64,000 bases of DNA, from positions 1 through 64,000 of IMG/VR virus record IMGVR_UViG_3300010939_000064; one strand, 5' to 3'. Shown here in pieces: positions 14,625-64,000 of the stretch. Each line of letters opens with the position of its first letter. The stretch's first letter is position 1. The position numbers and the translations under genes are program-made. The notes under the pieces were generated by a model. It ran no database searches. It saw only the letters and a program-made list of their open reading frames with translations, and was not told the DNA's origin. Source of the DNA: a virus.

Positions 14625-14765
14625 ATGGCACAAATTATAATATGTAATAGTTGTGGAGGAAAATCTGTAACTATAACATGTAGTTCAGCTGATTCTAAAG
14701 GACGTTGTACTGCGTGTGGGGGAACATCATTTCATTATGAGGAGGTAAATAAAAATGACGTTTGA
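14625..14765 (+). CDS. Zn-ribbon mini-protein
   Basis: MAQIIICNSCGGKSVTITCSSADSKGRCTACGGTSFHYEE. The ATG at 14625 follows the stop of the previous ORF, so the GTG 14568 start given in the track is unlikely. Confidence 0.45.
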   Translation: MAQIIICNSCGGKSVTITCSSADSKGRCTACGGTSFHYEEVNKNDV

Positions 14766-14910
14766 CTGGAAAACTAAGAAGATAAATATACAGCGCTATT
14801 ATAAAGCTGTACGTAGATGTATTATTTTAAATGGTGATGACGGAACGTCTGGTAGTGGATATAAAGCATGACAAAAATTTAAAGAAACGTGGACCATTAT
14901 TGTAGCACCA

Positions 14911-15312
14911 TTGAGTAAAAGTAATAAGTATAATGGAATGTTTAAGCATTTAAAAATAGAAAAAGCAGGTGGAATGGCATGGGGTATTACAGGTAAAAAT
15001 ACTCTTTGGTGGTTTATAGCTGATAGTAGAGATCCGAGAATTTTTATGCAGAATCTTCTACCGGGATTTCATGAGTTATTGCATGCACTTTACCAGCAGG
15101 AAGTTGGAACTGAACATGTTAAGTATCTTACTTCAGATCCGCCTGAAGTTAGAAGAGTAGGTCAAACTGGACCTATGGCAACAGTTGTGGTTCATGATGA
15201 ATGGTACGGATTTAAAACATGGATTAGAATATGGTTTAAACATGGTGGTTGGCTTCCAATGAGAATGCCTTATATACCAATTAAAGTAGGAAAGAAAAGG
15301 TATAATATATGA
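14911..15312 (+). CDS. hypothetical protein with HExxH motif (possible zincin-like metallopeptidase)
   Basis: Contains PGFHELLHALY. TTG start. The 3' end is duplicated downstream of the following HNH gene. Confidence 0.4.
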   Translation: MSKSNKYNGMFKHLKIEKAGGMAWGITGKNTLWWFIADSRDPRIFMQNLLPGFHELLHALYQQEVGTEHVKYLTSDPPEVRRVGQTGPMATVVVHDEWYGFKTWIRIWFKHGGWLPMRMPYIPIKVGKKRYNI

Positions 15313-15845
15313 AAAACATTTGTATAATAGAAGAATGTAATGATTTTGTGCATGGAAATAGACTTTGTGGAAAACATTATAGAAGAGAATATTTATATGG
15401 AAGTCCACATGATATTATAGTTAAACAACATATTAGAGAAATATGTTCAATGCCTAATTGTGATAAAAAATATGCTGCAAAAGGTTTATGTCTTCAACAT
15501 TACAATGCTTTACCATATCACAAAGAAAGAAGAAGACGTAATGCATTAAAATATATGAAAAATAATAGAGATAAAGCAATTGAAGCAACAAGTAGATATT
15601 TAGAAAAGATGAGTAAATGTTTTAACATAAGTGGAAACATGTATAAGATATTAATAGATTGTTGGTCCAGAATAATTAAATATAGAGATAAGAAATGTGT
15701 TATTTGTGGTTCTGTAAATACATTAAATGCACATCATATATTTTATAAAAAAGATTATCCTATGTTAAGTTTAAATGAAAATAACGGAATAACATTATGT
15801 AGAAAATGTCATAGAGAATTACATGGAGGACATTGGAATGAATAA
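15309..15845 (+). CDS. HNH endonuclease (free-standing, different family from the five HNH_3 paralogs)
   Basis: C-terminal NAHHIFYKKDYPMLSLNENNGITLCRKCHRELH. Two N-terminal C..C......G.C..HY modules. Confidence 0.8.
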   Translation: MKNICIIEECNDFVHGNRLCGKHYRREYLYGSPHDIIVKQHIREICSMPNCDKKYAAKGLCLQHYNALPYHKERRRRNALKYMKNNRDKAIEATSRYLEKMSKCFNISGNMYKILIDCWSRIIKYRDKKCVICGSVNTLNAHHIFYKKDYPMLSLNENNGITLCRKCHRELHGGHWNE

Positions 15846-15912
15846 TATATGGGTTCCTACTAGGATGCCTTATATTCCTGTTAAAATGGCTAAAGTTGCT
15901 TATAACTTATAA
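15838..15912 (+). pseudogene. diverged duplicate of the 3' end of gene 14911..15312
   Basis: MNNIWVPTRMPYIPVKMAKVAYNL* compared with ..GGWLPMRMPYIPIKVGKKRYNI* at the end of 14911..15312. Confidence 0.55.
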
Positions 15913-16172: not shown

Positions 16173-16697
16173 ATGTGTTGGAGTTAGAATGATGCCTAAT
16201 TCAAAATGTATTTTATGTGGACTGGAGCTAATTAATCCACCTTATCCTCGTAAGACATTCCATGAAAAGTCAATATGTCATAATTGTTTAACGTCAATTA
16301 ATGGCTCGGAGTTGATTAGTGATTGACATCTATAAAGGAATGTAGCATAGCCTGTTCAGAAGCCCGACATTCTGACTGTTTTTACAAACCTTGTGAATGT
16401 AGGTGTCATCGTTAATGGCTTGTTGTCCTCAATGTGGTAAGCATACCTTAAATGGGCAAGGAAATTTTAATATATTTTGTAGTAAAGAATGTAGAGAAAA
16501 GTTTGGAGAAGAGGTGTTTTGAATGAATTGTTATGATAATATTGTTGATGATGAAGTTATACCGATGTGTTGTGATAAACCTACAATTGAGTTAGTTTTG
16601 GTACATGAAGAATATATGCATATTTGTACCAATTGTGACAGTCGTAGACCAGAGCTAGATTGAAATTGTTCTATACCTATGTTTCAGATATTCAATA

Positions 16698-16871
16698 ATG
16701 TACAAGTGTTCATTTTGCCCACGTACAGGTAGTCTTATTGAAATAAAAGATCATATAAGAAAGGAACATAAGAGAGAGCTTGAAAAATGTTTAGATGTTG
16801 ATAAGTGGAATAAAGGCCAAAAGATAAGTTATACATTTAAGGATAACGCTGTATCTAAAGATAAGGTTTGA
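16698..16871 (+). CDS. C2H2 zinc-finger mini-protein (57 aa)
   Basis: MYKCSFCPRTGSLIEIKDHIRKEHKRELEK.. gives C-x2-C-x12-H-x4-H. It is one of about seven ORFs under 60 aa packed between 16189 and 17000. Confidence 0.45.
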   Translation: MYKCSFCPRTGSLIEIKDHIRKEHKRELEKCLDVDKWNKGQKISYTFKDNAVSKDKV

Positions 16872-16982
16872 CTAAAACTGAAGTTATAACTTGGGTATGT
16901 ACGATATGTAGGTATAAAGTTACTCAAAGAATTAAGCCACGTAATTGTAGCAAATGTAAGAGGTTTGGAAGTATGACATTTT

Positions 16983-17306
16983 ATGGATCGAAAGTTGTCT
17001 GAAGATAAGTGTGCTGTTTGTGAAGGTTCTTGTAAATTTATAGGAGCACTATGTTTATATTGTAATGGAACTGGAGAGAAGAATAATGCTGCTACAGCTT
17101 ATATTAAGAATCATATTTGTCAATGTATTACATTGGATAGAAAATGGTGTCCTGTATGTAAGAAGAAATGTCATCATGATTCTAGTTCAAGACCTAAACA
17201 AACGATTGAACCTGGACCGGGAGGAATTTCGTATATAGATTATAGAATTACTGGTGATAAAACTACTGGTGAAGAAGAAACTAAAGTAGAGGAAGTTACA
17301 GCATGA
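16983..17306 (+). CDS. Cys-rich protein with DnaJ-type CxxCxGxG element
   Basis: CAVCEGSCKFIGALCLYCNGTGEK, then CPVCKKKCHH, with an acidic tail. Confidence 0.45.
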   Translation: MDRKLSEDKCAVCEGSCKFIGALCLYCNGTGEKNNAATAYIKNHICQCITLDRKWCPVCKKKCHHDSSSRPKQTIEPGPGGISYIDYRITGDKTTGEEETKVEEVTA

Positions 17307-17460
17307 AGAATTTAGAGACACATATTAAAATTGTTTGTATGTTCTGTGGATTTCATAATCATTTTATAATGCCTGTTTTAGGAGAAGATGCAATTGCACA
17401 TCATAGATGTGAACATTGTGATAAATATATAATTGAAATGCATACAGCAGATGTAGAAGA

Positions 17461-17820
17461 ATGAAGGGTATAGTTACTCTTTGTGGATCGACAAGATTTA
17501 AACGAGAGTTTGAGGAAATGAACGCGCTTTTAACTTTTGAAGGATGGATTGTTTTGAGTGTAGGTATTTTTGTGCATGATGAAAATAATAAAACTATAAA
17601 GGCTGAGATAAAGAAAAAGAAAAATATGTTAGATACTCTGCATAAAGAAAAAATAGAGATGTCTCAGTTTATTATTATTATTAATAAAGATGGATATATT
17701 GGTAAATCTACTGGAGAGGAAATTAAATACGCAGAAGAAATAGGTAAATCTGTTTATTATTGGAATAATAGATATTCATGGTTTAATGAAAAATTAATAA
17801 AAGCTTATGAAAAAGTTTAA
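17461..17820 (+). CDS. nucleoside 2-deoxyribosyltransferase-like / DUF4406-like protein
   Basis: N-terminus IVTLCGSTRFKREFEEMNALLTFEGWIVLS resembles the CGS.RF...f......L...G..V signature of this Rossmann-like family. Confidence 0.35.
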   Translation: MKGIVTLCGSTRFKREFEEMNALLTFEGWIVLSVGIFVHDENNKTIKAEIKKKKNMLDTLHKEKIEMSQFIIIINKDGYIGKSTGEEIKYAEEIGKSVYYWNNRYSWFNEKLIKAYEKV

Positions 17821-54149: not shown

Positions 54150-54977
54150 ATGTCAGCTAATATTGAGACGACGCAAAGTACATCAGAAAAGTATGATATA
54201 GATACTTTATTTGAAAATGCGCACGCACAACAAGAAAAGAATCCATATATAAGTTGTATATTTTGGGGACCGCCAGAATCTGGTAAAACGTATACTGCGT
54301 TATCGTTTCCTGGACCGATCCATTATGTTGATTTAGATGGTGGATTAGATTTAAATCTAAAATACTATAAAGATAAAGATATTCAACGCATTAGGTGCAT
54401 TAGTTTGGATGACGATAAAGAGAATCTTGCAGATCCAAAAGATTATGATGGATTCAAGGTTGATCCAATTAATACATTAAGGAATTTTGATGTTGCGTGT
54501 ACAGTACTTCAACAGAAAAAAGGTGGTACAGTTGTTGTCGATACAATGACAGCGTATAATGAGTGGCTTAAAGCATTGATGACTGCCAGAATTCCTAAAC
54601 ATATAAACAAAGAAGGACAAGAATATGTGGACCAATTCGATTGGAAATATGTCAATCAAAAATGGTTATGGTCTTGGGAGAAACTAAAGAATATATCGGC
54701 AAATTTAGTAGTTACCGCAAAATCTAAACCTGTATATCAAGGTAGAGACATTACTGAAAATATTGAAGCAGATTTACGGCCTAATACAGGATTTCAGACT
54801 GCGATTAATGTTGAGTTTACTAAAGATGTTTCACAGGCACAAGATGGGAAAGTAACCACTGTACGAAAAGCTAAATTTAATAAATTTAGAGGTAATAAAC
54901 TTGGATCTACATATAGTATTGAAAATCTTACATATGATAAGATAATGGATATTCTTAAGGCAGAAAAACAAGTATGA
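54150..54977 (+). CDS. RecA-like ATPase (AAA_24 / Sak4-like)
   Basis: Walker A is CIFWGPPESGKTYTAL and Walker B is TVVVDTMTAY. Confidence 0.55.
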   Translation: MSANIETTQSTSEKYDIDTLFENAHAQQEKNPYISCIFWGPPESGKTYTALSFPGPIHYVDLDGGLDLNLKYYKDKDIQRIRCISLDDDKENLADPKDYDGFKVDPINTLRNFDVACTVLQQKKGGTVVVDTMTAYNEWLKALMTARIPKHINKEGQEYVDQFDWKYVNQKWLWSWEKLKNISANLVVTAKSKPVYQGRDITENIEADLRPNTGFQTAINVEFTKDVSQAQDGKVTTVRKAKFNKFRGNKLGSTYSIENLTYDKIMDILKAEKQV

Positions 54978-55558
54978 GTAATATTTTAGATAATTATAAT
55001 AAAGATAATAAATTACTTTTACCTAAGGGTATGTTAAATAATTTTATGGCAAAAATTAACATACCTAAAGATAAAAGTAAATGTTGGATATGGATGGCGT
55101 CGTTAAACAATGGATATGGTACTTTTAGTACATATGGACTTACTGGTAAATTTGTTCATAGAATTATGTATGAACTAATTAAAGGAAGGATTAAAGAATC
55201 TTACACAATAGATCATTTATGTAGTAATAAATTATGTGTAAATCCAGAGCATTTAGAACAAGTAACTCGTGATGAGAATTTATTGAGGGGCAACGGCGAT
55301 TTAACTCACGCTGGATTTTGTTCCAAAGGTCATAAAAGAACATTAGATAATATTTATATTACACCAAGTACTGGTGCAACTAGGTGTCGTAAATGTAAAG
55401 GAATTTATCATCCGGAAAGAAAAGATTTTGTTAATAATAAAGATAAAACTTATTGTAAAAGAGGACATGAGTTTACTAAAGAAAATACTTATTTAAGATC
55501 AAATGGTGGACGACAGTGTAGAACATGTATGAGTTTAAGAAATAAAGGATTAATATGA
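54974..55558 (+). CDS. HNH homing endonuclease, paralog 2 of 5
   Basis: YTIDHLCSNKLCVNPEHLEQVTRDENLLRG plus two C..GH...C..C modules. Confidence 0.8.
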   Translation: MSNILDNYNKDNKLLLPKGMLNNFMAKINIPKDKSKCWIWMASLNNGYGTFSTYGLTGKFVHRIMYELIKGRIKESYTIDHLCSNKLCVNPEHLEQVTRDENLLRGNGDLTHAGFCSKGHKRTLDNIYITPSTGATRCRKCKGIYHPERKDFVNNKDKTYCKRGHEFTKENTYLRSNGGRQCRTCMSLRNKGLI

Positions 55559-58116
55559 TAGATATATATAGAAAAGTACACACAGGAATTAGTTTCTCTA
55601 CTAAAGGAAGACCTATTTTAGATATTTTCTCTAGAGATAAAGATAATAATAGGGGTACTATTAAAATATTAGATTTACCAATATATTTCTACTTAAAAGA
55701 AGATGAGTATATTGAAGAAATAGATAGAAAATCAAGTATTATTGGTGAATATTATGGATATATGAGTTTATATGGAGAAAAACTTAAGAAAGTTAAAGTT
55801 AAAAAAATATCAGATATGCGTAGATTAGGTAAAATATATCATGGTTATGAGTCAGATATTAATTGGAGTAAAAAATGTATGTTAGATTTACAAATTACTG
55901 ATAAGTTTCTTTATCATGAAGGAAAAGCTTATACTCTTGATCCTAGATTTAATGCATTAAAAGATAAACAGATGGAGGTATTGACAGATGATGGATTATC
56001 AATATCTACTACTGTCGAGAGTAATGTGGATAAATTACTTATATCAAAAGCGTTAGAAGAAGAAGGTGATTTACATAATTATAAACCAAAGATTGGAACT
56101 GAACCATTTGAGGTTAGATACGGAATTTTTGATATCGAAGTTGTTGTTAATAAAAGAGAGGATCTTAAAACTTATAATGGTAAAATAGTTTGTGTTGTTA
56201 TTTATGATTCTTATACTAAATTGTATCATAAATTAAAATTAGATCTTAGTGAAAAAGATTTTATTAAGACAGTTTTAAGTAAATTCCGTGAATTAGATTT
56301 TGATATTATAAGTGGATGGAATGTTAAATTTGATATGGGGTGGCTTATAAATAAAGCTGAAGATTATAATTTAGATTTAAGTATTTATTTTCCTGGAGGT
56401 AAAACTTTTATTAGTAAGTATACTGACCATGAAGGTAAATTTAAAGAAAGTTTTTATATTGGTGGACGGGTTCTTCTTGATGGAATGGATTTATATATTA
56501 AGAAAACCGCTACAACTGAAAAGCTTAATTCTTATAATTTAAAGTCTGTTGCTGCTGCTGAAAAGTTACCTGAATGGACAGATTTAGGTGGTCAAGTTAA
56601 AGAAATATGGGAAAATAATCCTAATCTAATTTTAGACTACTGTAAAATAGATGTTGAAAGAACTATGCAAATTATTGAAAAGAAGGATTTACTTGGTGGT
56701 GCCCTTACTATTTGTAAATTTTATGGCTGTGGATTTGAAGATGTTACTGTTAATTCTAAAATTATTGATTGTCTTAGTTTTTTGCTTAAAAAGAATCGTA
56801 TTCTTCCTAATATTATTAGAGGTCGAGAAAAAGCTAAAATTACAGGAGCAAAAGTTCTTGGTACAAAAGCCGGTGTACATAAGAATGTAGGTGTACTTGA
56901 TGCTGCTAGTTTGTATCCAAGTATTATTCAAGGTTTGAATATTTCTCCTGAATGTTTAGTTTATGAAAAGGATTTATCTGAAGATAGGCGTATACATTGT
57001 ATTACTGTGGATTCTTATACTGCTAAACATTATTTGTACAAAAAAGAATATAAAGTAGGATTAATGACTGAAGTTATTCAAGAGATGAGAAAATTAAGGG
57101 AAGAAATTAGATCCAATAGAGCGCAAGCAACTAAAGATAATGATACAGAAAAATTTACTCTTCACAATAATGAAGAAAAAGTAGCTAAAGGAGTTCTTGC
57201 TTCTGTTTATGGTGTTATGGGATTTAATGGATTTAGATTATTTAATGAAGATTGTGCTAATATTATCACTAAAGTTGCACGTGATACTGTTTTAATGACT
57301 GCTGAAAAGTTAGAATCAGATCGTTTTCATGTTATTGCAGGTGATACAGATTCATTATTTGTTCAAATGAATAATGTTAACGATGGATTTATTGCTGCTG
57401 ATATAATAGATAAAATGGCTGTAGACTATATGAAAAAATTAGGTATAAATGAATCTATAATTAAAGTTAATTATGAGAAGTTCTTTAAATGGATTATGTT
57501 TAGTAAAAAAGTTTCTAAAAAAAGAAAAACAAAATTATATAAAGTAGATGAAGGTTCAGCTAAAAAGAGATATATTGGATTTATTAGTCATGTTGAAAGT
57601 GGTCCACGAGAAATGAAGGAAGTTAATGAGTTATATTATAAAGGATTTGAATTACGTAGAAGTGATAGCGCAAAAGTTTTGAAAGATGTTATGCGCAAAT
57701 TTTTTAATCTTATGGAAGACGGTAATTATAAGTTAGCTGTTAAATATTTAAGAGATGTTAAAGATGCATTTCATGGTTATACAATGGATTATGTTTCTAT
57801 GCCTAGATCAGTTAATGTTGAAGACGCTAAGGGTCCATGGGCTGACGGATATAGATACGCGAAGACAGAACTTAAATTTGAATTTGAACCTGAAACTATG
57901 CCTAAACTTATTTATGTTAAAAATCAATTTAAATATCCTAAGACTAAAGTTATCTGTTATCAAGATGGACATGCTATACCACCAGAGTTTAAGATTGATT
58001 ATGATACTATGTTTGATAAGATTATTAAAGCTAAGTTTGAACCTATTCTCGAATCATTAGGAACCTATTGGGATGTATCTATCAATAACCAAGTTGCGTT
58101 AGATCAGTGGTGTTAA
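55555..58116 (+). CDS. polB: family B DNA polymerase
   Basis: Exo I YGIFDIEVV, Exo II ISGWNVKFDMGWL, Exo III YCKIDVERT, motif A VLDAASLYPSII, motif B KGVLASVYGVMG and motif C VIAGDTDSLFV. Confidence 0.9.
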   Translation: MIDIYRKVHTGISFSTKGRPILDIFSRDKDNNRGTIKILDLPIYFYLKEDEYIEEIDRKSSIIGEYYGYMSLYGEKLKKVKVKKISDMRRLGKIYHGYESDINWSKKCMLDLQITDKFLYHEGKAYTLDPRFNALKDKQMEVLTDDGLSISTTVESNVDKLLISKALEEEGDLHNYKPKIGTEPFEVRYGIFDIEVVVNKREDLKTYNGKIVCVVIYDSYTKLYHKLKLDLSEKDFIKTVLSKFRELDFDIISGWNVKFDMGWLINKAEDYNLDLSIYFPGGKTFISKYTDHEGKFKESFYIGGRVLLDGMDLYIKKTATTEKLNSYNLKSVAAAEKLPEWTDLGGQVKEIWENNPNLILDYCKIDVERTMQIIEKKDLLGGALTICKFYGCGFEDVTVNSKIIDCLSFLLKKNRILPNIIRGREKAKITGAKVLGTKAGVHKNVGVLDAASLYPSIIQGLNISPECLVYEKDLSEDRRIHCITVDSYTAKHYLYKKEYKVGLMTEVIQEMRKLREEIRSNRAQATKDNDTEKFTLHNNEEKVAKGVLASVYGVMGFNGFRLFNEDCANIITKVARDTVLMTAEKLESDRFHVIAGDTDSLFVQMNNVNDGFIAADIIDKMAVDYMKKLGINESIIKVNYEKFFKWIMFSKKVSKKRKTKLYKVDEGSAKKRYIGFISHVESGPREMKEVNELYYKGFELRRSDSAKVLKDVMRKFFNLMEDGNYKLAVKYLRDVKDAFHGYTMDYVSMPRSVNVEDAKGPWADGYRYAKTELKFEFEPETMPKLIYVKNQFKYPKTKVICYQDGHAIPPEFKIDYDTMFDKIIKAKFEPILESLGTYWDVSINNQVALDQWC

Positions 58117-58118
58117 TA

Positions 58119-58712
58119 ATGACTAAATATGATAATGTAAATAAATTAGTTTTACCATGTGATGTATTAGATAAATTTATTAAAAAATTAATAATTCCTA
58201 AAGATATAACACAATGTTGGTTGTGGAAAGGAATACATTCGCCAAAAGGATATGCAAGATGGAGTACTTGTTATTCTAAAAGCGCACATGTAAGTAGGAT
58301 AATTTATGAATTAATATTTGAAAGAATAGAAGAAAAATTAGTTATAGATCATTTATGTTGTAATAAAAGTTGTGTAAATCCTAATCATTTAGAAATTGTA
58401 ACAATGGGAGAAAATACAAAAAGAGGTAATACTAAATTGAGACATAATGATTATTGTAAAAATGGGCATAAAAGAACTTTAGATAATATTTATATACGTA
58501 AAAATGGATTTGTGCAATGTCGTAAGTGTTTAGGAATCTATCATCCTGATAGATTAGATAGAAAACCAGGTATTAATCATAATACTTTTAAAACTATATG
58601 TATAAGAGGACATAAATTTGATGAACAAAATACAGGATTTAATAAAGATGGAAGTAGGTACTGTAAATCGTGTAAATCGTTAAGTAATAAAGGAATGTTA
58701 ACAACATTATGA
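58119..58712 (+). CDS. HNH homing endonuclease, paralog 3 of 5
   Basis: LVIDHLCCNKSCVNPNHLEIVTMGENTKRG. The likely start is ATG 58119 (MTKYDNVNKLVLP), as in the paralogs. The track start GTG 58107 lies inside polB. Confidence 0.8.
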   Translation: MTKYDNVNKLVLPCDVLDKFIKKLIIPKDITQCWLWKGIHSPKGYARWSTCYSKSAHVSRIIYELIFERIEEKLVIDHLCCNKSCVNPNHLEIVTMGENTKRGNTKLRHNDYCKNGHKRTLDNIYIRKNGFVQCRKCLGIYHPDRLDRKPGINHNTFKTICIRGHKFDEQNTGFNKDGSRYCKSCKSLSNKGMLTTL

Positions 58713-58750
58713 TGATTAATAACCAAGTGACACTGGATGTATGGGCGTAA
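58712..58750 (+). pseudogene. diverged duplicate of the polB 3' end
   Basis: ATG ATT AAT AAC CAA GTG ACA CTG GAT GTA TGG GCG TAA (MINNQVTLDVWA*) compared with the polB end ..INNQVALDQWC*. Confidence 0.55.
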
Positions 58751-59468: not shown

Positions 59469-59571
59469 ATGTTCAGATTGTGATGATACTGGTATTATAG
59501 TTGTTGGTGGATTAAAAACTAGATGCTGGAACTGTTCATCGTTTAAAGGTTGGAATAGAAAAAATGACTGA
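59461..59571 (+). CDS. DnaJ-type CxxCxGxG zinc mini-protein (36 aa)
   Basis: MVKCSDCDDTGIIVVGGLKTRCWNCSSFKGWNRKND. It overlaps both neighbours. Confidence 0.4.
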   Translation: MVKCSDCDDTGIIVVGGLKTRCWNCSSFKGWNRKND

Positions 59572-60010
59572 ATATAATAATAATAATAAAATGATTTTAA
59601 CTGAGAATATGGTAAATAAAATAAGAAATAAAATTATTATTACTCTAAATGGAGATGAATGCTGGGATTGGAAAGGATCTTATAGTAAATCAGGATATGC
59701 AACATTCAATTTAGGATCTGGAATTAGTAATCGTGTTCATAAAATTTTATATGAATTAACTATAGGTAAAGTACCAGAAGGTTTAGAATTAAATCATAAA
59801 TGTTGTAACAGATGGTGTGTTAATGCTGGTCACTTAGAGATAGTTACACATCAAGAGAATCAATTAAAAGGTGGAAGTTTGTTAACTCAAAAAGGATTTT
59901 GTAAAAATGGACATAAAAGAACTATTGAAAATACTTATTTTAAACCTGATAAAACTAGTATTGAATGTAAAGAATGTAATAAAATTAGACAAAAAAATAG
60001 ATATAAATAA
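59564..60010 (+). CDS. HNH homing endonuclease, paralog 4 of 5 (short form with one C-terminal Cys module)
   Basis: LELNHKCCNRWCVNAGHLEIVTHQENQLKG. Confidence 0.75.
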   Translation: MTEYNNNNKMILTENMVNKIRNKIIITLNGDECWDWKGSYSKSGYATFNLGSGISNRVHKILYELTIGKVPEGLELNHKCCNRWCVNAGHLEIVTHQENQLKGGSLLTQKGFCKNGHKRTIENTYFKPDKTSIECKECNKIRQKNRYK

Positions 60011-60019
60011 GTTTAAAGG

Positions 60020-60379
60020 ATGGGGGCATGGAAGATGAATGGAGATATTGGTAGAATCGATCCTGATTTTGATACTATAATTAAAGAATGTATAAAACAA
60101 TTAAAGATTAAATTTCCTAACTACGGAAATACATGGTTAGAGCAAGATGATAAACATTATAAAGAAAGAATTAAAAAAGAGGTTAATGAATATATTGATA
60201 GTATGTCAATAGATTCTGAACGTCGTAAATTATTAAACATAATTAATTTAGCAGCAATGGCTTATCAGACGGCACATGTAAATAGAGCAGATAGACGTAT
60301 ATCAGCTAGATGTCCAAAATGCAGTAAGCCTTTAACATTGCATAACATAAAAGATGGATTTTTTGTATGCCTTGACTGA
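60020..60379 (+). CDS. hypothetical protein (helical N-terminal part, C-terminal Zn-ribbon)
   Basis: ..NTWLEQDDKHYKERIKKEVNEYIDS..LLNIINLAAMAY.. is weakly MazG-like. The C-terminus has ARCPKCSKPL. Confidence 0.3.
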   Translation: MGAWKMNGDIGRIDPDFDTIIKECIKQLKIKFPNYGNTWLEQDDKHYKERIKKEVNEYIDSMSIDSERRKLLNIINLAAMAYQTAHVNRADRRISARCPKCSKPLTLHNIKDGFFVCLD

Positions 60380-60761: not shown

Positions 60762-61370
60762 ATGACACGTATTATTACTTTTACAGGTGCTCAAGGCACA
60801 GGTAAAACTGCTACTAGAGGAGAACTTGTTAGATGGTTACAGAAACATAAATATTCTGTTATCGATAGATATTCAGGTGTAAAACAAAGTATTGCAAGAG
60901 ATGCTAAACAGTTTGGATTTATTATAAATGAAAAAACTAATTTTGAATCACAGTATTACATTGCTAGTAGATATATTGTTGCAGATATTGAAACGCGAAA
61001 AAATGCTGAACGAAGAAGTGTTGATTTTATAGTTCTAGATAGATCTGTGCTTGATAGTATTCCTTATATTATGGTGGCTACCGCTATTACAATAAGTCAG
61101 AAAGAGGTACTTAAAAACATGTTAATTGATCATTTTGCTTTATTTCCTAGTAGATTACTTTATTGTGAACCGTTAGATTTTGTTACTTGGGATAAAGATA
61201 GATCTACTAATACGAAATTTCAGGATAGTGTTGATGCTGAATTTAGGAATATTCTTATAAAAGCTTCACAATATTCAAATACGTTTATTTTAAAAAGAGG
61301 ATCTATTGAACAACGGTTAAGAGATGTTATTAAGGAACTAGGTATCGAATGTGGAACTATTAGAATTTAA
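60762..61370 (+). CDS. P-loop NTPase, nucleotide/deoxynucleotide kinase-like
   Basis: Walker A is ITFTGAQGTGKTAT. FIVLDRSVLDSIPY resembles the D-R lid region of dNK/AAA_28 kinases. Confidence 0.45.
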   Translation: MTRIITFTGAQGTGKTATRGELVRWLQKHKYSVIDRYSGVKQSIARDAKQFGFIINEKTNFESQYYIASRYIVADIETRKNAERRSVDFIVLDRSVLDSIPYIMVATAITISQKEVLKNMLIDHFALFPSRLLYCEPLDFVTWDKDRSTNTKFQDSVDAEFRNILIKASQYSNTFILKRGSIEQRLRDVIKELGIECGTIRI

Positions 61371-61410
61371 CAAAATTCGTAAGTCATTATTAATGTCATG
61401 GAAAGTGTAA
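61351..61410 (+). pseudogene. diverged duplicate of the 5' end of the Cas4-like nuclease gene
   Basis: VELLEFNKIRKSLLMSWKV* compared with MKELEFNKVRKSLLMSWKVC.. at 61989. The differences are mostly synonymous. Confidence 0.6.
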
Positions 61411-61988
61411 TGCAAAGTTTAAATTATGATAATGAGAATAAATTAATTCTACCTAAATCTACAGTTAAGAGAATTATCAAGAAAATTATAATACCAGAAG
61501 ATATATCGAAATGTTGGGAATGGATCGGCGGTCGCGCACATGAGTATCCGTATATTAGAATAAATAATATAATGAATAAGCCTGTACATAGGATAATGTA
61601 TGAATTAGTGAATGGTAAAATAGAACAGGGATTAGTTATTGATCATGTTTGTAGTAATAAAAATTGTGTAAATCCACAACATTTAGAAGAAGTAACTAAT
61701 CATGAAAATAATCTTAGAGGTAATACTGATTTACAACATGCTGGATATTGTAAAAATGGACATAAGAGAACTCCTGAAAATACGTACATTAGACCAGATG
61801 GACGTGGTACGTATTGTCGTAAATGTGCAGATATATATCATCCAAAAAGGGAAGATTATATTGTAAATAAAGATAAAACACATTGCATTAGAGGACATGA
61901 ATTTACACTAGAAAATACACGTATAAGAAAATATGGTGGAAGACAATGTAAAACGTGTGATATATTACACGCTAAAGGATTAATTTAA
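61410..61988 (+). CDS. HNH homing endonuclease, paralog 5 of 5
   Basis: LVIDHVCSNKNCVNPQHLEEVTNHENNLRG. The likely start is ATG 61410 (MQSLNYDNENKLILP), with TAATG overlap to the fragment stop. The track start is 61398. Confidence 0.8.
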   Translation: MQSLNYDNENKLILPKSTVKRIIKKIIIPEDISKCWEWIGGRAHEYPYIRINNIMNKPVHRIMYELVNGKIEQGLVIDHVCSNKNCVNPQHLEEVTNHENNLRGNTDLQHAGYCKNGHKRTPENTYIRPDGRGTYCRKCADIYHPKREDYIVNKDKTHCIRGHEFTLENTRIRKYGGRQCKTCDILHAKGLI

Positions 61989-62828
61989 ATGAAAGAATTA
62001 GAATTTAATAAAGTAAGAAAGTCGTTGTTGATGAGTTGGAAGGTATGTCCAAGGCAAAGTTGGTATAGTGTTAGAGATCCAGAATATGGGGAATATAATA
62101 AATTTAATTTTAAAGATCCTGCTTTATTATTAGGACAAATTTTTCATAAAGAAATGGATAAGTTTTATTCTGAAATTGATATTAATGATATGGTAAAAAT
62201 GATGAATAATAATGAAGATTCATGGAAAGTATTAGAAGAGTATTTGTTTAGTCAATTTAGTCAAACAACTCATGAAAAATGTCTTAAATATTTTCATTGG
62301 TATGCTGGTATTGAAGCGCAGAGATTTATTGAGTTATATAGTGAATCTAATACTGGTATTGTTCAAAGATTTATTCCATTATATATAGAGAAATTTGTTG
62401 AAATGATAGATGAAAAAAATAATATATATAGGAATGGACATTTTGATAGAATTGATTATATTTCACCAGGGAAACTTAGACTTGCTGAATATAAAACAGG
62501 ACATAGTTATGATGTAGCAAAGTCTTATAAATTAACTAAATTAAGATTGGAATTATATTATTATAAACGTATTATTGAACAACTTCCTGAATTTAAGGAT
62601 TATGAAGTCTATGAATGGATGCTAATTAATCCTACGACTGAAGCAGTATTTACTTCTAAGTTTTCAGTGTTAACTGAACGTGTGTTAGAAGAGTCAATTC
62701 CAAGGTTAGCTGCGGATATAAATAAGAAAGAACCACCTCGTAGAAATTTAAATTTTTATTGTTTTAGATGTAAGTATAAACGTGGATGTTTAATAGATAT
62801 TGCAGAAAATATATTTGATATAATGTAG
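61989..62828 (+). CDS. Cas4/RecB-like PD-(D/E)XK exonuclease with Cys cluster
   Basis: N-terminal CPRQSWY, core GHFDRIDYISPGKLRLAEYKTG (D...E.K) and C-terminal CFRCKYKRGC. Confidence 0.65.
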   Translation: MKELEFNKVRKSLLMSWKVCPRQSWYSVRDPEYGEYNKFNFKDPALLLGQIFHKEMDKFYSEIDINDMVKMMNNNEDSWKVLEEYLFSQFSQTTHEKCLKYFHWYAGIEAQRFIELYSESNTGIVQRFIPLYIEKFVEMIDEKNNIYRNGHFDRIDYISPGKLRLAEYKTGHSYDVAKSYKLTKLRLELYYYKRIIEQLPEFKDYEVYEWMLINPTTEAVFTSKFSVLTERVLEESIPRLAADINKKEPPRRNLNFYCFRCKYKRGCLIDIAENIFDIM

Positions 62829-63745
62829 TGATGAAGTTTGTACATGTTATAGAAAAAAATAATTTTACAGATTTATATAAACAGTTACAATTTGATTTAG
62901 TTCATGAGGGGATTACTATTGAACCAAGAAGAATGTTAACGCGTGAACTTGTTAATGTTAATCTTGTATTGACTGACCCACAAGAGAGATTGCTTTATTC
63001 AAATGTTCGTAAACATAATTATACGTATGCTTCAGCGGAGTTTCTTTGGTATTTATCAGGTACTAATAGGTTAGATTTTATTGAATATTATTTACCTAAA
63101 ATGAGAGAATATTCTGATGATAAGGTAACACTTAATTCTGCGTATGGATATAGAATATTCGGTAATCATGATGATTTTCCGAATCAATGGATTAATGCTA
63201 TACTTAAAATGAAAGATGATCCATCTACTAGACAAGCTGTGATAACAGTTCATTATCAGTATGATATTGATATGCCATCGAAAGATGTGCCGTGTACTAT
63301 GAATCTTCATTTTATGATAAGAGAAAATAGATTAAATTTATTAGTACAAATGCGAAGTAATGATGCATTCATGGGTTTGATTTATGATGTATTTTCGTTT
63401 ACATTATTACAAGAACATTTTTTTAATTGTTTAAAGGTAACTGATCCTGAGATGTTTGCATATTTGAAATTAGGAACTTATATACATAAGTCTGATTCAA
63501 TGCATCTGTATGAAAGGAATTTAGATAACGTTAATCAATTATTAGATGAAAACTCAGCATCAGCTAGGAATATTATTTCTCCCGATATAGGTTTATTTCT
63601 TGATTCTCTTGATTTGCCTTCACTTCAGAGAGATGAGCAAGCATTGAGAAAACATGGTATAAAGATAGAAACACACTTATATAGAGGGATATGTAGATTT
63701 ATGGCTGAAAAGCTTAATAAAATATTGGAGAAGAAAAATGACTAG
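62828..63745 (+). CDS. ThyA-family enzyme with cytosine-type active site: deoxycytidylate 5-hydroxymethyltransferase (T4 gp42-like) or dCMP methylase
   Basis: EFLWYLSGTN, NSAYGYRIF, DDPSTRQAVITV, VPCTMNLHFMIRENRLNLLVQMRSNDAFMGLIYDVFSF and SDSMHLY. The residue aligned with E. coli ThyA Asn177 is Asp. Confidence 0.6.
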   Translation: MMKFVHVIEKNNFTDLYKQLQFDLVHEGITIEPRRMLTRELVNVNLVLTDPQERLLYSNVRKHNYTYASAEFLWYLSGTNRLDFIEYYLPKMREYSDDKVTLNSAYGYRIFGNHDDFPNQWINAILKMKDDPSTRQAVITVHYQYDIDMPSKDVPCTMNLHFMIRENRLNLLVQMRSNDAFMGLIYDVFSFTLLQEHFFNCLKVTDPEMFAYLKLGTYIHKSDSMHLYERNLDNVNQLLDENSASARNIISPDIGLFLDSLDLPSLQRDEQALRKHGIKIETHLYRGICRFMAEKLNKILEKKND

Positions 63746-63908
63746 TTATATTAGTCTTAAAAAAGCGTCGTTTAGAATAGCTATTAATTTTAATAAATAT
63801 CATGCCTTTAGACATTTTAATAAAACAAGATTTTATTTTGAAATATGGCGTAGTGCTAATAGAAATTGGCATATTGAATTGTTTATAATAGGTAAAAGAG
63901 TTTTATAA
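63738..63908 (+). CDS. mini-protein (56 aa)
   Basis: MTSYISLKKASFRIAINFNKYHAFRHFNKTRFYFEIWRSANRNWHIELFIIGKRVL. It overlaps the upstream stop. Confidence 0.35.
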   Translation: MTSYISLKKASFRIAINFNKYHAFRHFNKTRFYFEIWRSANRNWHIELFIIGKRVL

Positions 63909-64000
63909 TGCTTGAATCACATACTTTCTTTAGGAAAATGGTTGATGAACTCGTAGAGTTCTCTGAATATGATCCTGAGCTTGCTGATGGAATAAAGTGG
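63908..64000 (+). CDS. 5' end of a gene truncated by the window end
   Basis: ATG 63908 (TAATG coupling). MLESHTFFRKMVDELVEFSEYDPELADGIKW.. is open to the window edge. Confidence 0.35.
   Translation, partial: MLESHTFFRKMVDELVEFSEYDPELADGIKW

Follow-up and report, generated by a model that had tools for sequence, protein, structure and literature searches.

The closest described counterparts of the element reported here are the mobile open reading frame (mORF) gene hybrids of fungal mitochondria, known from atp6, atp9, cox2, and nad3 of Glomus (Beaudet et al. 2013, PMC3630166) and from atp6 of Allomyces macrogynus (Paquin, Laforest & Lang 1994, as cited in PMC3630166). In these hybrids, an inserted foreign C terminus and an open reading frame (ORF) precede the remnant of the native C terminus (PMC3630166; also PMC7487136 and PMC6279837), and the native part resembles relatives more closely than the inserted part does (PMC3630166). 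A similar arrangement occurs in a 64,000-nucleotide (nt) stretch of the IMG/VR virus record IMGVR_UViG_3300010939_000064 (the window, whose coordinates are used throughout), where an HNH endonuclease ORF (61410-61988) is flanked by two diverged copies of the 5′ end of a PD-(D/E)XK nuclease gene. We consider it likely, on the strength of sequence comparison, that the ORF and the copy now in use form a cassette of a free-standing HNH homing endonuclease and a replacement for the first 19 codons of a conserved gene, the replacement having come from a diverged lineage.

The likeness to mORF hybrids is structural: an endonuclease ORF lies near a gene terminus, a foreign terminus is in phase with the gene body, the displaced native terminus lies beyond the ORF and is nearer to relatives, and the protein sequence is conserved. 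The mORF hybrids, however, involve GIY-YIG or LAGLIDADG enzymes, organelle genomes, and replaced C termini (cases in PMC3630166), whereas in the window the enzymes are HNH, the genome is that of a tailed virus (the contig has polB and structural genes), the arrangement occurs at 5′ as well as 3′ gene ends, and the junctions are built on start and stop codons that overlap within a compact operon. We see this likeness as an analogy, not as homology or descent. The anatomy was already known in fungal mitochondria; what appears to be new is its viral, HNH-based occurrence, in 5′ and 3′ forms and with overlapping start and stop codons.

In T4-like phages, the free-standing seg and mob homing endonuclease genes (HEGs) undergo intronless homing with co-conversion (PMC2988022). 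Like the genes in the window, they are free-standing, include HNH (mob) genes, occur sporadically among relatives, and co-convert donor flanking markers, but they are intergenic or split a gene into two polypeptides, as mobE does in nrdA of Aeh1 (PMC2988022), whereas in the window the gene is kept whole by a carried second copy of its end. The text of that review contains no word beginning with “duplicat.”

Exonic co-conversion tracts adjoin mobile introns such as the td intron of T4 and the cox1 intron of angiosperms. A similarly short, donor-type, and mostly synonymous tract adjoins the insertion described here (nt 58 to 75 of the nuclease gene), although in the intron cases splicing restores the gene and nothing is duplicated. 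I-HmuI, from Bacillus phages SPO1 and SP82, is a phage homing enzyme whose target is a conserved polymerase gene; it is encoded in a group I intron, none of which is detectable here. Among solved structures, that of I-HmuI (PDB 1u3e) comes closest to the HNH_3 profile, with marginal similarity (E = 0.028 in a profile search), and a single-sequence PDB search gave no match. No phage or viral description of the design was found in the literature, including a 2025 survey of lactococcal HNH genes, with the proviso that this coverage was incomplete and does not prove absence.

Two copies of a nuclease gene start flank the HNH gene

The insertion lies downstream of a kinase-like gene (60762-61370; Pfam AAA_28, PHROG annotation “thymidylate kinase”), which is on the plus strand, as are the nuclease gene, the HNH genes of the window, and the in-use and remnant gene ends described below. 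Between this gene and the HNH ORF, positions 61351-61410 (GTG GAA CTA ... GTG TAA) hold 19 codons and a stop, with the translation VELLEFNKIRKSLLMSWKV. Downstream of the ORF, an intact gene for a 279-aa nuclease (61989-62828) starts with MKELEFNKVRKSLLMSWKVC, and its first 57 nt duplicate the upstream remnant. The two copies are identical at 15 of 19 residues and at 41 of 60 nt (68%), and their longest common exact run is 12 nt. In codons 10 to 19 (RKSLLMSWKV), all 10 residues are the same while 10 nt differ, and synonymous sites are saturated (proportion of synonymous differences, pS, ∼0.9). The GTG of the remnant sits 20 nt within the 3′ end of the kinase-like gene, its TAA overlaps the HNH ATG (TAATG, 61410), and the nuclease ATG follows the HNH stop immediately (TAAATG); a second in-frame ATG is available to the HNH ORF at 61398. 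On rereading, the positions and sequences of both copies, their residue and codon matches, and the two overlaps were as given in a preliminary description of this DNA. The same description called the nuclease Cas4-like; its Pfam match is to the PD-(D/E)XK family (PF12705), and the match to Cas4 itself (PF01930) falls below the cutoff.

The HNH ORF encodes a 192-aa endonuclease of the HNH_3 (His-Me finger) family (PF13392, E = 9.5e-15; phrog_826, “HNH endonuclease,” E = 2.4e-45), and H79, N100, and the Cys residues (catalytic and Zn binding) show no variation in the alignment. Including this ORF, the window has five HNH_3 paralogs, which are 39 to 56% identical among themselves, and it contains one further HNH gene, of the PF01844 family. 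A blastn search against known phages gave a sole match, of 92 nt, from HNH gene to HNH gene.

The ORF is delimited by stop and start codons and is not embedded in a detectable intron or intein. Were it part of a group I or group II intron or of an intein, the upstream fragment would be a real exon spliced to the gene body, and there is a superficial likeness to such an element in two related cases described below (the 5′ end of polB and contig L012), in which an HNH ORF is fused in frame to a native gene start. We regard this explanation as highly improbable here: the Rfam scan returned no intron or other RNA family, either at the gathering threshold or at an E value of ≤1 over 61200-62200, a stop codon closes the upstream fragment, the downstream copy starts at an ATG of its own and retains the full conserved N terminus, and there are neither intein motifs nor in-frame continuity.

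A short matching segment on a metagenomic contig might also be fortuitous or come from a chimeric assembly of two strains, but we assign this a negligible probability. The best flank-to-flank protein score (300-nt flanks) was 80, compared with maxima of 59 for random flank pairs of equal spacing from other parts of the window (n = 2000) and 46 for shuffles (n = 1000); the shuffling check proposed in the preliminary description thus argues against a chance match of 19 codons. In a six-frame search of the whole window, the nuclease N terminus had a single second copy, at 61360-61407 (E = 2.8e-7), and the fragment matches alleles from relatives without the HNH gene. Both junctions are real, because an independent ENA assembly (L096, 705 nt) corresponds to window positions 61376-62080, with 99.86% identity and one mismatch, and contains them both.

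Two minor features of this assembly concern the repeat. Its sole mismatch (AAA versus AAG) is at a synonymous site in the remnant. It begins inside the remnant and ends ∼30 nt past the duplicated part of the in-use copy, and the repeat, or strain variation at the repeat, may therefore break short-read assemblies.

The upstream copy is native and the copy in use is foreign

The nuclease has 43 homologs in public metagenomes, with the conserved N terminus RKSLLMSWKVCPRQ, and no match to the nuclease query in IMG/VR. The DNA of 12 distinct related lineages (L001, L002/3, L004-6, L007, L008, and L095 and seven from a degenerate DNA scan) has one nuclease start each and no HNH gene at the site. The HNH gene is therefore polymorphic for presence and absence at the kinase-nuclease junction. 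The upstream gene was read in the six named lineages, in all of which the kinase-like gene adjoins the nuclease gene or overlaps it; in the seven scan lineages, the check covered ≤900 nt upstream and found a single nuclease start and no HNH motif. In L002/L003, the nuclease starts 20 nt inside the kinase gene, which is the same overlap as that of the remnant in the window. HNH-less relatives that nevertheless bear both copies, which the preliminary description named as refuting its interpretation, were absent among the 12 lineages.

Comparison with the closest relative, L001 (85% identity over the kinase and nuclease genes), distinguishes the two copies. Over codons 7 to 19, the remnant differs from L001 at 3 of 39 nt and the in-use copy at 13 of 39; the differing synonymous codons number 2 of 10 and 10 of 11, respectively. 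The identity of the nuclease gene to L001 is 66 to 80% in the first 75 nt and 93 to 96% thereafter, same-residue codons differ at 11 of 15 positions in codons 7 to 25 and at 38 of 210 in the remaining gene (binomial P = 4.5e-6), and the most divergent 19-codon windows of the whole gene are exactly those of the 5′ end. On the basis of L001 identity and the synonymous-codon comparison, the upstream fragment is the resident (native) gene start, and the start in use is part of a foreign tract of ∼75 nt (61989-62063). This tract reaches ∼18 nt past the duplicated 57 nt, i.e., the flanking sequence is donor type, as after co-conversion. Matching HNH-less alleles to the two copies, as had been suggested, thus paired the remnant with the closest relative.

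The codon states of the in-use copy include AGT for Ser16, AGA for Arg10, AGG for Arg22, and a Ser in place of Ala at position 24. From the resident allele, such states would be reached through multinucleotide or nonsynonymous changes. An AGY codon for Ser16 is also found in L007 and L105, L007 additionally has AGR Arg codons and Ser24, and the TCG TTG of the in-use copy recurs in L095 and L109. The codon usage scores of the two copies are alike, each in the ∼7% tail. Because its codon states occur in natural alleles and its codon usage equals that of the remnant, the in-use copy is an ordinary allele of a diverged lineage and not a special recoding. The exact in-use patch is absent from the JGI metagenome and IMG/VR scans. 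Until recently, both copies were functional starts in separate lineages, which accounts for saturated synonymous change together with a conserved protein.

Deliberate recoding with rare codons was considered separately and rejected, since both copies lie in the same tail of codon usage.

An in-place origin of the repeat has also to be weighed, namely, a tandem or target-site duplication at insertion followed by divergence, perhaps selected to escape self-cleavage (a true recoding). In its favor, nearly all the changes are synonymous, and they cluster densely in the conserved block, but we consider this origin very unlikely. With 11 of 15 synonymous codons differing between flanks that are 93 to 96% identical to L001, the patch has changed too much for the time available. 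The changes TCA to AGT and GCA to AGT need multistep or nonsynonymous paths, and the resulting states already exist in natural alleles; the codon usage in the in-use copy is no odder than that in the remnant. Further, no close HNH-bearing relative with near-identical copies was found, whereas donor-like alleles exist in nature. Nor is the repeat a transposon-type target-site duplication, as the copies are 68% identical and one is foreign to the backbone.

Other HNH genes in the window have the same arrangement

The design is found at three clear sites in the window, i.e., the nuclease 5′ end, the polB 3′ end, and the 3′ end of the gene at 14911-15312, and at three sites with shorter segments; start and stop overlaps are tidy at every HNH junction. 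The architecture had been reported for the HNH genes at 58.1 kb and 15.3 kb, and at both of these the remnant was found and is the sole second copy in the window.

The in-use (replacement) 3′ end of polB (58081-58116) reads INNQVALDQWC before the stop and resembles the terminal WC and QC of L004 and L095. It is followed by an HNH_3 paralog (58119-58712) and then, 2 nt (TG) after the HNH stop, by the remnant of the native end, INNQVTLDVWA plus a stop (58715-58750), which overlaps the next gene start at 58741. The last six residues of the remnant, TLDVWA, are those of the HNH-less L002 allele, which has the same overlap with the next ATG, so that the native terminus is nearer to relatives than the inserted terminus is, as it is to L001 at the nuclease.

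At 15.3 kb, the in-use 3′ end of the gene at 14911-15312 (15250-15312) encodes WLPMRMPYIPIKVGKKRYNI, and its stop overlaps the ATG (ATGA) of an HNH endonuclease gene (15309-15845) that belongs to the different family PF01844 but has the same architecture. The remnant (15850-15912; E = 2.6e-7 as second copy) encodes WVPTRMPYIPVKMAKVAYNL, and its stop overlaps the next ATG (TAATG, 15912). Homologs of the gene at 14911 resemble both C termini, and the native assignment comes from the overlap with the next gene.

A separate peculiarity of the same gene is that its longer frame (14755-15312) is broken by an in-frame TGA at 14869-14871, a position at which its homologs P0164 to P0166 (181 to 206 aa) are uninterrupted. 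It could be a nonsense mutation or a site of recoding or read-through; in the window, TGA is the stop codon of other genes.

The three shorter cases all involve HNH_3 paralogs. The paralog at 59564-60010 lies at the 3′ end of a 36-aa zinc ribbon gene, whose in-use end reads SFKGWNRKND, with the stop extending to 59571. The remnant, KFKGWGHGR plus a stop (60009-60038), overlaps the ATG of the next gene at 60020, and the equivalent end in HNH-less L002, AFKGWKN, also overlaps the next ATG. The motif FKGW is duplicated, the duplication amounting to ∼12 nt, and this is a probable case of terminus replacement. Also probable is the paralog at the polB 5′ end (54974-55558), where the segment is just 4 codons: the first 11 nt of the ORF, ATGAGTAATAT (MSNI), are identical to the native start of polB in L002, and polB now starts with ATGATAGATATA (MIDI) at 55555, overlapping the HNH stop. 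The third paralog (84-665) is inside the 3′ end of an ERCC4 gene that now ends in CKKCMSNLK, with its stop at 86. The remnant of the native end, LGSLYRDPKYF plus a stop (695-730), persists because it overlaps the next gene start at 696, and the ERCC4 end of L002 reads CKHCLGSLSRDASNI. Here the end has been replaced with no clear duplication; the site is reproduced at 100% identity in three independent assemblies.

The starts of these paralogs are shared in pairs, i.e., MSNI at 54974 and 84 and MT(K/E)Y at 58119 and 59564. ATGACTAAA also begins the gene that follows polB in L095 and L004, and the MTK start of the HNH gene at 58119 matches the L095 gene downstream of polB at 17 of 18 nt; the paralog at 59564 also starts with MTEY. 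The shared starts may be host start codons that the paralogs captured and took to new sites, or they may be intrinsic to the family.

Related cassettes in other phages

One of the nearest non-self homologs of the window HNH protein (P0047, 40% identity) is encoded by a phage with 58% GC, between methylase and Rad52-like genes. The first 32 codons of its ORF are the native start of the Rad52 gene, and a diverged copy of them then begins the in-use gene. This cassette is present on two contigs, L012 and L013, which come from different samples. They are 100% identical through the methylase gene, the remnant, the HNH gene, and the replacement 5′ end, up to ATCGCTGCGTAT, and then drop immediately to 50 to 70%; the similarity between the remnant and the in-use copy ends within one nucleotide of that point. 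Because the block of identity ends where the duplication ends, the HNH gene and the replacement end move together, as one block edged by the insertion point, and this homologous system provides direct evidence of such movement.

L012 contains a second HNH_3 gene (228-980 of that contig), with a weak match to an AP2 domain and no flank duplication seen.

In a third, unrelated lineage, L087 (48% GC), the C terminus of an HNH protein is fused to the displaced 3′ end of an upstream 384-aa gene. The two copies have at most 8 to 12 nt of exact identity in the five clear cases.

Proposed mechanism and its weighing

The preliminary description proposed, as alternatives, that the cassette travels with a recoded copy of the gene end and that the junction records homing from a diverged relative. 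These are two sides of one explanation: the in-use copy comes from a diverged relative and probably travels with the cassette. Homing from a diverged relative accords with the ∼75-nt foreign tract and with codon states common to distant natural alleles. Travel with the cassette is supported by the block transfer in L012/L013, and in the window itself the mosaic boundary suggests the same; only “recoded” has to be dropped, the codon states being natural and their usage ordinary.

The replacement copy, which starts right after the HNH stop, continues into the resident gene body, so that the nuclease stays full length, and the resident 19 codons are displaced upstream, keeping the start region that overlaps the kinase-like gene and ending in the stop that overlaps the HNH ATG. 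The enzyme is predicted to nick or cut HNH-less alleles at or near nt 57 of the nuclease gene, around the junction of TCATGGAAAGT and TTGTCCACGACAAGC. During co-infection, the break would be repaired from an HNH-bearing genome, with the kinase gene and remnant serving as the left arm and the gene body serving as the right arm. The donor-type nt 58 to 75 would be the co-conversion tract of the last homing event, and the first 57 nt of the in-use copy, lying inside the element, would never be converted to host type and would keep the donor sequence.

Divergence between the repeats may have several consequences. The carried copy could be a poor substrate for the enzyme, and the earlier suggestion that it destroys the cleavage site is plausible; divergence would hinder loss of the HNH gene via recombination between direct repeats; it may also simply reflect the age of the donor lineage.

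Promoter and terminator scans gave no signal above background. Shine-Dalgarno-like cores precede 21 of 53 genes, compared with a background of 11.5%, and the C-terminal codons of the HNH genes, AAAGGATTAAT, put such a core ahead of the in-use polB and nuclease starts. Translation signals are probably provided by the remnant and by these 3′ codons, and the HNH protein and the nuclease would then probably be expressed by translational coupling.

The observations could alternatively be the scar of a single repair event, in which the HNH gene was intergenic in a diverged donor and the recipient retained its own 19 codons after aberrant repair by one-sided invasion and end joining; the duplication would then have no role and would not travel with the element. 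This account predicts a donor-type copy in use and a recipient-type remnant, as homing of a cassette does also, and it is in keeping with the failure to find a second host of the HNH gene at 61410-61988 and with the clean intergenic position of most HNH_3 genes elsewhere. We nevertheless judge it, and with it a duplication that has no role, to be unlikely. One genome shows the same anatomy at three clear sites, and at up to six in all, with two HNH families; every junction is on start and stop overlaps, which is not expected from random end joining, and the block shared by L012 and L013 stops exactly where the duplicated segment does.

Several points weigh against a homing cassette. Both the endonuclease activity of the HNH protein and its cut site are predictions from the sequence, and the origin of the first cassette is left unexplained. 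The search of the protein collection found no second host genome with the HNH gene at 61410-61988, whose closest non-self homolog is a paralog with 56% identity in the same genome; mobility of this particular cassette as one unit is suggested by analogy with the L012/L013 system. Three of the six sites in the window are based on very short segments. Finally, the design was found at ∼1 of 78 IMG/VR HNH_3 loci (the clear case being L087) and at none of 8 loci in the annotated phage collection, which comprise actinophage isolates and two assembled Nitrosopumilaceae virus records. Ungapped scoring was used for the survey, since gapped protein scoring was swamped by low-complexity off-frame translations in GC-rich phages. 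Given this rarity, terminus duplication is not obligatory for the HNH_3 family.

Viewed more generally, a synonymously diverged replacement terminus may represent a third way, beside introns and inteins, for HEGs to inhabit cleavage sites in essential viral genes. The displaced terminus would serve as a homology arm and a donor of translation signals, and divergence would confer both cleavage immunity and repeat stability. We propose this only tentatively, together with the suggestion that the design, which occurs in at least three unrelated lineages, has so far been unrecognized in viruses of bacteria and archaea. The arrangement shows how a selfish endonuclease gene can settle inside the coding regions of essential replication genes with no intron or intein and with the protein left unsplit. 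Such elements can be sought by a simple sequence signature, a gene end directly repeated in diverged form on the two sides of an endonuclease ORF, and the repeat boundary serves to predict where they cleave. Short foreign tracts at gene ends can also mislead phylogenies and gene calling in viral metagenomes. With up to six insertions in one compact virus, homing appears to be a strong force in this uncultured, maybe archaeal, lineage.

Genome context

The virus has no near known phage, its polB being 21 to 25% identical to those of isolates. Among matches of the HNH_3 genes in the phage collection, those ranked top by coverage are ORFs of Nitrosopumilaceae spindle-shaped viruses (BK067788 and BK067792), with 35 to 41% amino acid identity and 74% nucleotide identity over 92 nt (61605-61696). 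These matches, together with a GC content of 31%, ERCC4/XPF and TrmB genes, and a polB that is distantly related (21% identity) to that of a haloarchaeal tailed virus, hint at an archaeal (ammonia-oxidizing) host.

The start of the window continues the gene order of its end (1-86 and 62828-64000; ThyA-like through ERCC4, HNH, and a 383-aa gene, as in L002), with the ERCC4 gene truncated at the boundary of the window. Given this continuity, the 65.4-kb contig probably represents a complete genome that is circularly permuted. Positions 16189-17464, downstream of the HNH site at 15.3 kb, contain ∼10 very small ORFs, all on the plus strand, that are CxxC rich (zinc ribbon-like). A nucleotide metabolism module (60762-63745 and 1849-2184) comprises dNMP/thymidylate kinase-like, thymidylate synthase-like (305 aa), and dUTPase_2-like genes and could indicate modified DNA bases, which would bear on the substrates of the HNH enzymes.

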